The notes beneath the pieces are model-generated. The model saw only the letters and a list, made by a program, of their open reading frames with translations, searched no databases and had not been told where the DNA came from. Positions 1 through 4,345 of a DNA stretch of 4,345 bases are shown here, one piece after another; position 1 is the first letter of the stretch, and each line of letters begins with the position of its first letter. The DNA lies in IMG/VR virus record IMGVR_UViG_2740892487_000004; one strand, given 5' to 3'. Origin of the DNA: a virus. Its lineage: Duplodnaviria; Heunggongvirae; Uroviricota; Caudoviricetes. The position numbers and the translations under genes are program-made.

Positions 1-635
1 GCGCTGATTTTCTTACGCCGCAGTTCATCGTGACAGAGCCGGGTGTCGTAAGCGCCGTCTGCCGATGCTGCCCTGATTTTTCTGTGAGTCTGCCGGATAA
101 GACCCGGGAAGCTTCTGAGTCCGTCACATTGTTCAGCGACAGGTCTGCACAGATGATTTCATGTGTGTTGCTGTCAACTGCCAGATGCAACTTTCGCCAT
201 ATACGACGGCGTTCTTTGCCGTGTTTTTTGGACTTTCCATTCGCCTTCACCAAAGACCTTCAGCCCGGTGGAATCAATCACCAGATGCGCGATTTCACCC
301 CGGGTGGGCGTTTTGAAACTGACATTAACCGACTTTGCCCGCCTGCTGACACAGCTGTAATCCGGGCAGCGTAGCGGAACGTTCATCAGGGCAAAAATGG
401 AATCAATAAAACCCTGCGCAGCCCGCAGGGTCAGCCGGAATACGCGTTTAATCACCAGAACGGTGGTGATGGCGAGATCAGAATAGCGCTGGGGCCTTCC
501 TCGTGAAGAAGGTGTTGCTGACTCATACCAGGCCTGAATAGCTTCATCATCCAGTCAGAAAGTTATGGAGCCACGGTTGATGAGGGCTTTATTGTAGGTG
601 GGCCAGTTGGTGATTTTGAACTTTTGCTTTGCCAC
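1..635 (-). pseudogene. IS903-type transposase, disrupted (one in-frame stop and two frame changes); C-terminal part lies beyond window start
   Basis: Start candidate GTG 635..633. An in-frame TGA at 557..555 falls at the position of a Trp in the recalled IS903 protein, within the otherwise matching motif F-[W]-LDDEAIQAWYE. The frame then stays open to a TGA at 176..174. The conserved transposase sequence continues only after a +1 shift near 222-232 and a -1 shift near 103-115. Confidence 0.75.
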
Positions 636-712
636 GGAACGGTCTGCGTTGTCGGGAAGATGCGTGATCTGATCCTTCAACTCAGCAAAAGTTCGATTTA
701 TTCAACAAAGCC
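500..712. repeat. Left arm of a 213-bp inverted repeat (IS903-like end), partner at 4135-4345
   Basis: The reverse complement of 4135-4345 aligns with 500-712 with 2 substitutions and 2 single-base indels (about 98% identity by hand alignment). The right arm stops at the window end, so the true repeat is probably longer. Confidence 0.9.
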
Positions 713-1143
713 CCGTTGCGCTTAAAGTTCCGCAGTTAGTTCCCATAGCCACAAATGAGGAGATAATTCCGCGCTTACCTTTTGGCGCATATTCCGCCAG
801 CATCGTACCGGCACCGGAAATTTCCGCACCTGCACCCAATCCCTGAATAATACGCAGCGTCACCAGCAAGATGGGGGCAAAAACACCAATCTGTGCATAG
901 GTCGGTAACACACCAATTAAGGTGGTACAGATCCCCATCATGGTGATGGTAATAAAGAGCACTTTTTTACGCCCTATTCTGTCGCCCATTTTGCCGAAAA
1001 TAAATGCTCCGACAATACGCGCCACATGACCTGCACCGTAGGTTCCCATTGCCAGAATTAACGCCATTGCCGTTGATGATTCAGGAAAAAAATATTTCAT
1101 GAAACACTAACGCTGCGCCGAGCGAATATAACTGGAAATCCAT
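713..1143 (-). pseudogene. ydfJ: MFS transporter (metabolite:H+ symporter family) N-terminal remnant, ydfJ-like; frameshifted and truncated by the IS
   Basis: Track ORF 702..1100 (-) reads MKYFFPESSTAMALILAMGTYGAGHVARIVGAFIFGKMGDRIGRKKVLFITITMMGICTTLIGVLPTYAQIGVFAPILLVTLRIIQGLGAGAEISGAGTMLAEYAPKGKRG..., typical of the N-terminal helices of MHS transporters such as ProP, KgtP and ShiA. Its last residues and stop (704..702) lie inside IS sequence. Upstream in another frame, 1143..1084 encodes MDFQLYSLGAALVFHEIFF, which fits the conserved DF-x-x-Y...FFP motif. The two frames join if the 7-base homopolymer at 1086-1092 were 6 bases. A TGA at 1149..1147 precedes it, so about 40 N-terminal codons are missing. 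The gene symbol comes from recalled synteny with ydfK-pinQ-tfaQ-stfQ. Confidence 0.7.
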
Positions 1144-1748
1144 AATTCACAGGTGTTTTTTTTCCATCCTGTGGTTTCCTTGGCGTTTTCTAGGTTTTTT
1201 CAGATAGTTGCATTTTTTAAAAAGCATCCTAAGTTCGATCTCAGTGTCTATCTGGGGCCTATTTCTGTCCCATATATGCCCAAAAAAAAACTCCCCAACA
1301 GATAAGTAGTTTTTTCATGGATTTATGCGTAAAATCAAGAACGGCTGGAAATCATTCAATACTCACACTATCGAAAAATTTACCAGCCAACCGCAGCACG
1401 TTCTTGCATAAGGCGTGTCTGCGGTTTTTCAACTATTCAGATACATCACTCCCATCACATTCATTCCTCCGCATCAAAGGCATATAGGCTATATCACCTT
1501 GATATTTTTATTTTTCAGATAAAAACTGTTATCTATGTATACTTTTAAACCCAATCCGTGTAGAGTCTCTGCATAAGATAGTTTGCAGTTGCCGCTTCAG
1601 CTTGCGCCATAAACCGCCTGATTTTTGCTGCCACCTGTTAGCATTCCTGTATACCTGAAACGACAATGTTTATCTACGAACTTTAAGAACACCCAAGATA
1701 AAAATTGTCAACTATATCATATATAACACATTACTAATTCGAGGCTAT

Positions 1749-1862
1749 ATGAACAGCATACTGATAATCACATCTCTCCTTATCATATTCAGCATTTTTA
1801 GTCATGCCCTAATAAAATTAGGGATTGGCATATCCAATAACCCAGACAAAACCGATGTATAA
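1749..1862 (+). CDS. Candidate small hydrophobic protein (37 aa, probable single transmembrane helix)
   Basis: ATG at 1749 is preceded by GAGG (1741-1744) with a 4-nt spacer. The product [37 protein letters not shown] has a hydrophobic core and a polar tail. It is below the size cutoff of the supplied ORF track. No homology could be checked. Confidence 0.3.
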
Positions 1863-1930
1863 GTCAACATATCCTGAATCAGACATACAATATCGCAATG
1901 AAAATCAATAATATTTTAAGGAATATCTTC

Positions 1931-2164
1931 ATGAAATCAAAAGACACCCTAAAGTGGTTCCCTGCGCAGCTTCCTGAAGTAAGAATTATCCTAGGGGATG
2001 CTGTAGTGGAAGTAGCAAAACAGGGAAGACCTATCAATACCAGAACATTGCTTGATTACATTGAAGGAAACATAAAGAAAAAATCATGGCTGGATAACAA
2101 AGAATTATTACAAACAGCGATATCAGTTCTTAAAGACAACCAAAATTTAAATGGTAAAATGTAA
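1931..2164 (+). CDS. ydfK: YdfK/YnaE-family small prophage protein (77 aa; family recalled as cold-shock inducible)
   Basis: Track ORF 1898..2164. The ATG at 1931 has AAGGA at 1918-1922 with an 8-nt spacer, whereas the ATG at 1898 has no Shine-Dalgarno sequence, so I favour the 77-aa form MKSKDTLKWFPAQLPEVRIILGDAVVEVAKQGRPINTRTLLDYIEGNIKKKSWLDNKELLQTAISVLKDNQNLNGKM. Its position between a ydfJ-like gene and a pin-tfa-stf module matches the recalled Qin arrangement; ynaE is the Rac paralogue. Confidence 0.7.
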   Translation: MKSKDTLKWFPAQLPEVRIILGDAVVEVAKQGRPINTRTLLDYIEGNIKKKSWLDNKELLQTAISVLKDNQNLNGKM

Positions 2165-2329
2165 TATAATAAACTTACTTTTTTATCATTTTTCCACTTT
2201 AACAACATTTTGCTCCACTTTTCCACGACCAAACAACTTGAAATCTGGTTAAAATAACACGCAACACTATTCTTCTTCCTTGAGTCCGCCCGGAACTCGA
2301 AAAACAAACCGAGTTAAAGCCATTTTTCA

Positions 2330-2343
2330 CAAAATCGATTTTG
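2330..2343. promoter_or_regulatory. Perfect 14-bp palindrome CAAAATCGATTTTG inside a roughly 26-bp imperfect dyad, about 140 bp upstream of the recombinase gene; candidate protein-binding site
   Basis: Direct reading of 2323-2350: TTTTTCACAAAATCGATTTTGGGTCTCA. Function is inferred only from position and symmetry. Confidence 0.25.
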
Positions 2344-2480
2344 GGTCTCACCAAAATTACGGGGTTGCATACGCATTCGTTTATTTTCGAACGTGTACAT
2401 AAAAATATGCACAAAAATAATCAAAATTATTTTCTGAGATGCATTATGATATGAACACCAATTTCGTATAGAGTCTCACT

Positions 2481-3071
2481 ATGTCTCGAATTTTTGCTTA
2501 CTGTCGGATATCAACGCTGGATCAGACCACCGAAAATCAACGCCGGGAAATCGAAAGTGCAGGTTTTAAAATCAAACCTCAGCAAATAATCGAAGAACAC
2601 ATTAGCGGCTCAGCAGCAACCAGTGAGCGTCCTGGTTTTAACCGGTTGCTTGCTCGCCTGAAATGTGGTGATCAATTGATTGTGACAAAACTGGATCGCC
2701 TTGGTTGTAATGCAATGGATATCAGGAAAACAGTGGAACAACTGACCGAAACAGGTATCAGAGTGCATTGCTTAGCATTGGGGGGCATTGACCTGACCAG
2801 TCCAACAGGAAAAATGATGATGCAAGTAATTTCAGCAGTCGCTGAATTTGAACGAGACCTTTTACTTGAACGCACTCATTCCGGGATAGTAAGAGCCCGG
2901 GGCGCAGGGAAACGTTTTGGTCGACCACCTGTGTTAAATGAAGAACAGAAACAGGTGGTATTCGAACGAATTAAGTCAGGTGTAAGTATAAGTGCCATTG
3001 CCCGGGAATTCAAAACCTCGCGGCAAACCATTTTAAGAGCCAAAGCAAAACTTCAGACACCTGACATATAA
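2481..3071 (+). CDS. pinQ: Serine recombinase of the resolvase/invertase family, PinQ/PinR-like (196 aa)
   Basis: Full ORF. The N-terminus [20 protein letters not shown] carries the catalytic-serine motif R-I-S-T-x-D-Q. GRPP at residues 147-150 and a C-terminal helix-turn-helix ([18 protein letters not shown]) are typical of the Gin/Hin/resolvase family. Length and context match E. coli PinQ/PinR as recalled. The Shine-Dalgarno sequence is weak (GAG 2471-2473). Confidence 0.9.
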
Positions 3072-3168
3072 AAAATAATCTCGGTGTGAGATGCTTTACG
3101 TCTTCCAAGCCACCTTCCTTGCCGTAAATGGAAAGATACATCTAATTATAGAATTTATATGTTTTACC

Positions 3169-3744
3169 CTACGGCAGTGCTGGCCATTCAATATCCTGTG
3201 CAGTTGACGTATCAACACGGTTCAGCAATACCCGATACTTTTTCCATGCTTCCAGCAACGAGATTTCTTCCTCCGTTGCAATTTCCAGATCTGCAGCATC
3301 CTGAAGCGGCGCAATATGCTCACTGGCTACCTGCATCAGGCTGTTTTTTGTTTCTTCCGCCTCCCGGATCCGGAACAGTTTTTCTGCTTCCGTATCCTTC
3401 ACCCAGGCTGTGCCGTTCCACTTCTGATATTCCCCTCCCGGCGATAACCAGGTAACATTTTCCGGTAACGGACCGAGTTCAGAAATAAATAACGCGTCGC
3501 CGGAAGCCACGTCATAAACCGTTTTACCCCGATGATCTTCAACGAGATGCCACGATGCCTCATCACTGTTGAAAACAGCCACGAAGCCTGCCGGAATATC
3601 TGGCGGTGCAATATCGATACTGTTTGCTGGCAGACCTGTATGAGGCGGAATATATGCGTCACCTTCACCAATAAATTCATTAGTTCCGGCCAGCAGATTA
3701 TAAATTTTTATGGTCCGTGGTTGTTCACTCATTCTGAATGCCAT
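3169..3744 (-). CDS. tfaQ: Phage tail fibre assembly protein (Tfa chaperone, 191 aa)
   Basis: Full [52 protein letters not shown]..., recognised as the TfaQ/TfaR/TfaE family. Its ATG (3744..3742) overlaps the stop of the upstream tail fibre ORF (TAATG), consistent with translational coupling. Confidence 0.9.
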
Positions 3745-4133
3745 TATGCAAGCCTCACAATATAGTTAAATGCGATGTTTTTGACGGTGTTTTCCGCGTT
3801 ACCAGCAGCGTTAACGGTGATGGTATGTCCATGTGAACCAATCGCAACGGAGTGCGTATGAGCACCAATACCGACAGTATGTGCGTGTGCACCTGCGCTT
3901 GCAGCAGTACCCGATACAGAGTGCGTATGAGCGCCTGCAGAAGAAGTGTTAACACTGTATTTAGAATAATCAGGTGATCCACTTCCCGGAGCACCACTGG
4001 AACCACCTGAAACAAATGTCATCGAATGGGTATGTGCACCGGCTGAAGCAGCCGTACCGCTAACACTATGGGTATGCGCACCAGTGTTATTCGTGGATTT
4101 AGTGCCGTAATCAAACGACGATGTGGTTTTCGT
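3744..4133 (-). pseudogene. stfQ: Side tail fibre protein, C-terminal 129-codon remnant; 5' part removed at the IS junction
   Basis: Track ORF 3744..4223 (-). Residues 31-159 ([37 protein letters not shown]...[11 protein letters not shown]) are typical of the lambdoid side tail fibre C-terminus with His-x-His repeats. Residues 1-30 ([30 protein letters not shown]) are encoded by 4223..4134, which is IS903-like terminus sequence, so there is no native start. Confidence 0.8.
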
Positions 4134-4134
4134 C

Positions 4135-4345
4135 GGCTTTGTTGAATAAATCGAACTTTTGCTGAGTTGAAGGATCAGATCACGTATCTTCCCGACAACG
4201 CAGACCGTTCCGTGGCAAAGCAAAAGTTCAAAATCACCAACTGGCCCACCTACAATAAAGCCCTCATCAACCGTGCTCCATAACTTTCTGGCTGGATGAT
4301 GAAGCTATTCAGCCTGGTATGAGTCAGCAACACCTTCTTCACGAG
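4135..4345 (+). mobile_element. IS903-like insertion sequence, partial copy B, inverted relative to copy A; runs off window end
   Basis: 4135-4153 is GGCTTTGTTGAATAAATCG. GTG at 4212 opens [21 protein letters not shown], then the frame breaks at TAA 4279-4281: copy B lacks one base relative to copy A in GGAGC-CACGG and another in CAGG-CCTGG. Confidence 0.85.

Follow-up and report, generated by a model that had tools for sequence, protein, structure and literature searches.

Organization of the locus

The stretch of DNA analysed here (the window, 4,345 bases) is a piece of the Escherichia coli chromosome that spans the junction of ydfJ with the cryptic lambdoid prophage Qin. Among complete genomes, the closest is that of strain 81 (NZ_CP088131.1), which is 99.8% identical over window positions 1-4134, and the names of the window features were obtained by carrying the RefSeq annotation of the strain 81 DNA to window coordinates. 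The features are collected in Table 1.

Table 1. Features of the ydfJ/Qin window, in window coordinates
Feature	Position	Strand	Basis or comparison
Partial IS903B-family (IS5-like) element; transposase start at 680	1..712	-	99.6% identity to the strain 81 copy
One copy of the 9-bp target-site duplication, CCGTTGCGC	713..721		Strain 81, ATCC 8739
ydfJ remnant, codons 29-171 of 455	713..1143	-	YdfJ match, TIGR00883, RefSeq ydfJ annotation of the same DNA
A7 homopolymer; A6 in virtually all other E. coli	1086..1092		Genome and metagenome comparison
Qin attachment core GAAATCCATAA, ydfJ/Qin junction	1135..1145		Same 11-mer at both Qin ends in MG1655
TGA stop, two codons upstream of the MDFQ Met, prophage-derived	1147..1149	-	L*IMDFQ also read in MG1655
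T8C2, against T6C3 in relatives (extra T plus C-to-T at the boundary), non-coding Qin	1156..1165
C3A9, against C4A8 in relatives (C-to-A at the boundary), non-coding Qin	1279..1290
ynfT	1749-1862	+	Intact ORF, identical to strain 81
ydfK	1931-2164	+	Intact ORF, identical to strain 81
pinQ	2481-3071	+	Intact ORF, identical to strain 81
tfaQ	3169-3744	-	Intact ORF, identical to strain 81
Remaining 3' part of the Qin side tail fibre gene (stfQ-like), interrupted at 4134 by the second IS	3744..4134	-	Tail-fibre gene continues in strain 81
Second IS903B-family end, inverted relative to the first, same terminus inward	4135..4345	+	Two private 1-bp deletions (GG to G)

The ydfJ remnant is read in two frames

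Seven A's occupy window positions 1086-1092 (AAAAAAA; T7 on the coding strand). A sequence-only reading of this DNA had placed a frame change at this run, and inspection of the bases and of the minus-strand frames bears out both the run and the frame change. The ATG of MDFQ lies at 1143..1141 on the minus strand, where the first frame reads L*IMDFQLYSLGAALVFHEIFFS* and the second reads ...MKYFFPESSTAMALILAMG...GTLSATGLC*, running to 702; the MDFQLYSLGAALVFHEIFF piece and the remainder of the ydfJ reading frame are indeed in separate frames, as had been claimed. The extra base lies within codons 46-47 (TTT TTT); beyond them the frame continues with S and then TGA. Removal of one base of the run yields a single frame, MDFQLYSLGAALVFHEIFFPESSTAM...GTLSAT, that corresponds to residues 29-171 of YdfJ and is identical at 142 of 143 positions to the intact 455-aa YdfJ of strain SK1144 (WP_000151247.1). 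The sole mismatch, Y67H, arises from a G at window position 1028 (relative to K-12, ATCC 8739 and SK1144); since it is common to strain 81, it is a lineage SNP and no error.

The corrected fragment matches TIGR00883 (metabolite/H+ symporter) with E = 1.2e-62 over profile positions 7-149. With only part of the protein present, its score of 212 bits falls short of the 443-bit whole-protein cut-off. Together with the YdfJ match, this result supports the earlier identification of the gene as ydfJ, encoding an MHS-family MFS transporter.

A single-frame ydfJ ORF of the complete ~455 codons is not found in the window, which holds codons 29-171 only, distributed across two frames, and ydfJ is here a pseudogene remnant and not a functional family member. 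The earlier pseudogene call, and the claim that the run is one base longer than in the normal allele, therefore both stand (the run is A6 elsewhere). It had also been proposed that an intact single-frame gene, if obtained once the run was corrected, would remove that call. Such a gene is not obtained: the corrected frame has no proper start, and the IS903B-family element cuts it after codon 171, so that correction of the run is unable to restore the gene. The minus-strand ORFs at 702-1100 and 3744-4223 had no record in an exact protein look-up.

Qin integration accounts for the missing N-terminus

The TGA reported at 1149..1147 is present, and prophage DNA extends rightwards from the core at 1135..1145, which is followed by ynfT, ydfK, pinQ and tfaQ in the order expected of a Qin junction. 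In MG1655, the 11-mer GAAATCCATAA occurs at both Qin ends (L005 4278 and 24747), and the feature named "cryptic prophage Qin" in that record begins at the base equivalent to window position 1135. The flanks of the window junction are those of the MG1655 junction except for homopolymer differences.

The missing 5' end of ydfJ was located in MG1655 at the far Qin end, ~20 kb distant, where ynfP holds the 28 codons. ynfP encodes MTIEKHERSTKDLVKAAVSGWLGTALEFMDFKSHAC*, of which the first 31 residues are those of the intact YdfJ N-terminus, and its start, MTIEKHERSTKDLVKAAVSGWLGTALEFMDF..., is the N-terminus of the 455-aa YdfJ of SK1144; the ynfP-like DNA is MTIEKHERSTKDLVKAAVSGWLGTALEF. When attB is rebuilt from the bacterial sides of both MG1655 junctions, it is in frame, ...GTALEFMDFQLYSLG..., and reads ...ALEFMDFQLY. 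Of 5,426 complete E. coli genomes, 2,010 contain this reconstructed attB in one piece, and in most of the rest it is split. In SK1144, full-length ydfJ directly adjoins rspB.

Integration of Qin at the 5' end of ydfJ is known to result in loss of the promoter and of 28 N-terminal codons (PMC6379469), and in W, K-12, B and Crooks ydfJ is the listed site of Qin insertion (PMC3032704). The N-terminal loss in the window is one of 28 codons and the promoter through site-specific Qin integration, and not a local deletion of ~40 codons. The sequence-only reading was correct that the N-terminus is missing, whereas its figure of about 40 codons gives way to the 28 indicated by ynfP, by the SK1144 protein and by the published account (PMC6379469). 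A Kyte-Doolittle scan places the Qin cut inside the first hydrophobic stretch, ~residues 13-47, and half of this first hydrophobic segment has been removed. In the source genome, the 28-codon piece is predicted to lie at the distal Qin boundary, which is beyond the end of the window.

IS903B-family ends border the segment

An IS903B-family element cuts ydfJ at 712/713, after codon 171, a feature absent from the earlier note. The left IS terminus abuts ydfJ at 712, where GGCTTTGTTGAATAAATCG is read on the reverse strand, and the window contains one end of the element. That this is an IS903B-family insertion is seen from comparison with two genomes: in strain 81, CCGTTGCGC is found on both sides of the IS, with the remaining ydfJ beyond, and in ATCC 8739 a single CCGTTGCGC stands in continuous ydfJ. 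The strain 81 copy at the same site is intact and is annotated in RefSeq as an IS5-like element IS903B family transposase of 322 aa, whereas three changes interrupt the transposase frame of the window copy: one base is lost near 110, one is gained at 230, and TGG has become TGA at 555. Alignment of window positions 1-712 to L003 3001-4057 revealed that the left copy, like that of strain 81, is ~92% identical to the IS903B copies of MSB1_9D beyond the first 214 bases, and it is therefore a divergent IS903B-family variant.

At the other side, the stfQ-like gene is cut at 4134/4135. This right junction was found in none of the complete E. coli genomes inspected, and an exact-pattern scan of the GTDB species representatives gave no match to the stfQ/IS junction. 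NT1F34 and MSB1_9D, which also have a pair of IS903B copies close by, were considered as genomes sharing it and were rejected, their IS903B copies being at other sites. Over its first 211 bases, the right copy is of the MSB1_9D type at position 51 (T vs C).

The seven-base run is effectively private

The run is A6 in strain 81, ATCC 8739 and MG1655. An 81-mer of the window spanning the run has no exact match in 5,204 complete E. coli genomes, and 3,461 records contain the A6 80-mer without a mismatch. When the ranking obtained with the A6 80-mer was sampled at even intervals, all of the full-length matches (39 of 39) were found to span exactly 80 bases, and the remaining differences are therefore substitutions and not length changes. 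A7 was found in one other genome of ~5,204, SY3626_hybrid, on a different SNP background, and ydfJ of that genome is flagged as frameshifted by PGAP. Public metagenome contigs contain no A7 38-mer, as against 113 stretches with the A6 37-mer, a control that renders the negative meaningful; the A7 allele was likewise without a match in an exact-pattern scan of the GTDB species representatives. By these comparisons, A7 is an effectively private allele of a tract that has no length polymorphism in the species.

Origin of the extra A

The window and strain 81 differ at nine positions only. Six are single-base indels (near 110, 230, 1086, 1156, ~4275 and ~4312) and three are substitutions (555, the TGA in the transposase; 1163, C-to-T; 1282, C-to-A), and all are confined to the IS copies or lie beside the longest runs. 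The three altered runs, in the 1086, 1156 and 1279 regions, are the three longest runs of the window. T8C2 has no exact match in 3,180 complete genomes carrying this junction, and C3A9 has no exact full-length match among the matches listed, leaving aside three records of at least 99% identity that are possibly partial alignments. The four other indels fall on GG or CC doublets of the two IS copies and are in none of the other IS903B copies examined. Bases 1283-4134 (~2,850) are identical to strain 81.

Where otherwise identical DNA differs only in repeats and in the longest homopolymers, the pattern is that of an incompletely polished long-read or flow-based consensus. The private frameshifts in both IS copies, with a nonsense codon in the left copy as well, suggest consensus errors in the repeats. 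Three options had been offered for the run: real mutation, sequencing error and phase variation. The last is abandoned for the reasons given below, and between the first two the pattern of private differences favours error. A consensus error, introduced in sequencing or in assembly, is thus the likeliest cause of the extra A, and probably the true one. Counting against it, pinQ, tfaQ, ydfK and ynfT are all intact and match the references exactly, so the sequence is not uniformly error-ridden, and A7 is found independently in SY3626_hybrid, so that real slippage at this run is possible. Basecalling errors linked to Dcm or Dam motifs were considered as the cause of the indels, whose contexts have no consistent match to those motifs.

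We rank second, as a tentative alternative, a genuine insertion by replication slippage that became fixed in the isolate, neutral in a gene that Qin and IS903B had already inactivated and arising perhaps in a mismatch-repair-deficient lineage. Homopolymers are hot spots of slippage, and the change from A6 to A7 appears independently in SY3626_hybrid, on another SNP background. Moreover, ydfJ, having lost both its ends, is under no selection, and the substitutions private to the window are mostly transitions. Set against this, unique DNA outside 1086-1282 has no differences from strain 81 in ~3,200 bases, which makes nine real mutations within 1.1 kb improbable. In a real mutator lineage, 2-base runs inside IS copies are not expected targets, and it is in such runs that four of the indels occur. 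Finally, the indels would inactivate both IS copies, one of which is apparently newly inserted.

A far less probable reading takes the extra A and the other private indels as real and the inverted IS903B-family ends as a Tn903-like composite, built around a 3.4-kb Qin module (ynfT, ydfK, the pinQ invertase gene, tfaQ and the 3' end of the tail-fibre gene) together with a decaying ydfJ fragment. The two ends do flank a 3.4-kb ydfJ'-ynfT-ydfK-pinQ-tfaQ-stfQ' segment with both transposase-5' termini facing inward, and the inverted pair resembles a Tn903-like composite transposon. The whole IS-flanked segment has no record in the plasmid collection, where the best matches are chromosome-like records or match the IS only. 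If true, the composite element would offer a route to mobility for a prophage invertase and tail-fibre cassette.

The proposal that the run is a phase-variable contingency tract, a programmed frameshift or a transcriptional-slippage site switching ydfJ on and off draws on the 7-base T run of the mRNA at the frame change and on nothing else, and is very improbable: run length is invariant among strains (A6 exact in 3,461 records, A7 in one of ~5,204 genomes, none against 113 in metagenomes), neither phase is functional here, as the gene has neither its promoter nor its first 28 codons and is interrupted at codon 171, and intact homologues encode the region in one frame. Neither A6 nor A7 gives an intact, expressible gene. 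Programmed frameshifting and transcriptional slippage were rejected in their own right, since orthologues are single-frame, the two-frame arrangement lacks conservation and no product could result. Homopolymer contingency loci are alike in having a frame change at a mononucleotide run, but differ in that the window tract is short, does not vary in length among strains and has no functional ON state. The phase-variable slippage raised by the sequence-only reading is thus not supported.

Proposed history of the locus

The explanation that we favour as a whole, with a probability of roughly 0.6, is that positions 713-1149 hold a dead ydfJ remnant carrying three independent lesions, the third of which is most likely a consensus error. 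In the first, site-specific recombination of Qin at GAAATCCATAA, inside ydfJ codons 27-32, split off the promoter and the first 28 codons, with half of the first hydrophobic segment, and placed a prophage TGA just upstream of Met29. This lesion is seen in the window and has already been published. In the second, an IS903B-family element transposed into codon 171/172 with a 9-bp target duplication, removing the distal 284 codons from this side of the element; this lesion too is seen in the window and is common to strain 81. The third would be the change of the T6 of codons 46-47 to T7, probably in the consensus and not in the DNA. Because the frame is already cut at both ends, the extra A, whatever its origin, is without functional consequence.

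Relation to known loci

The locus combines a known ydfJ'/Qin junction with an IS insertion of a known type and a homopolymer difference that is private and trivial. Its significance is small: that Qin interrupts ydfJ is a textbook fact of K-12 genomics, and remnants of this kind commonly contain IS insertions. The value of the analysis is for annotation, in that the frameshift should not be reported as meaningful biology or as phase variation, and is better taken as a warning of possible consensus errors in the homopolymers and IS copies of the window.

The K-12 arrangement, in which Qin splits the gene into ydfJ (b1543) and ynfP (b4534), has the same junction, the same GAAATCCATAA core and the same L*IMDFQ reading. 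K-12 retains the 427-codon distal part of ydfJ in one frame with A6, whereas the window has A7, codons 29-171 only, the IS903B-family insertion and Y67H. The Qin-free ydfJ of SK1144 is of full length, with its own N-terminus, beside rspB, with neither prophage nor IS; the window gene is truncated.

The ydfJ::IS903B allele of strain 81 has the insertion site and the target-site duplication CCGTTGCGC of the window. It differs in having A6, T6C3, C4A8 and an intact transposase, and its tail-fibre gene continues past position 4135, where the window switches to the second IS. In strain 81 (L001 1-3965), ydfG, rspR, ydfI and the distal part of ydfJ are flagged as frameshifted by PGAP, which indicates that this genome is itself an indel-rich assembly.

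On the prophage side, K-12 Qin contains ynfT, ydfK, pinQ and tfaQ in the same order as the window. The pinQ invertase gene (2481-3071) adjoins tfaQ and the truncated tail-fibre gene (3169-4134), and this pinQ-tfaQ-tail-fibre group is the remnant of an invertible tail-fibre cassette of the Gin/Pin type.
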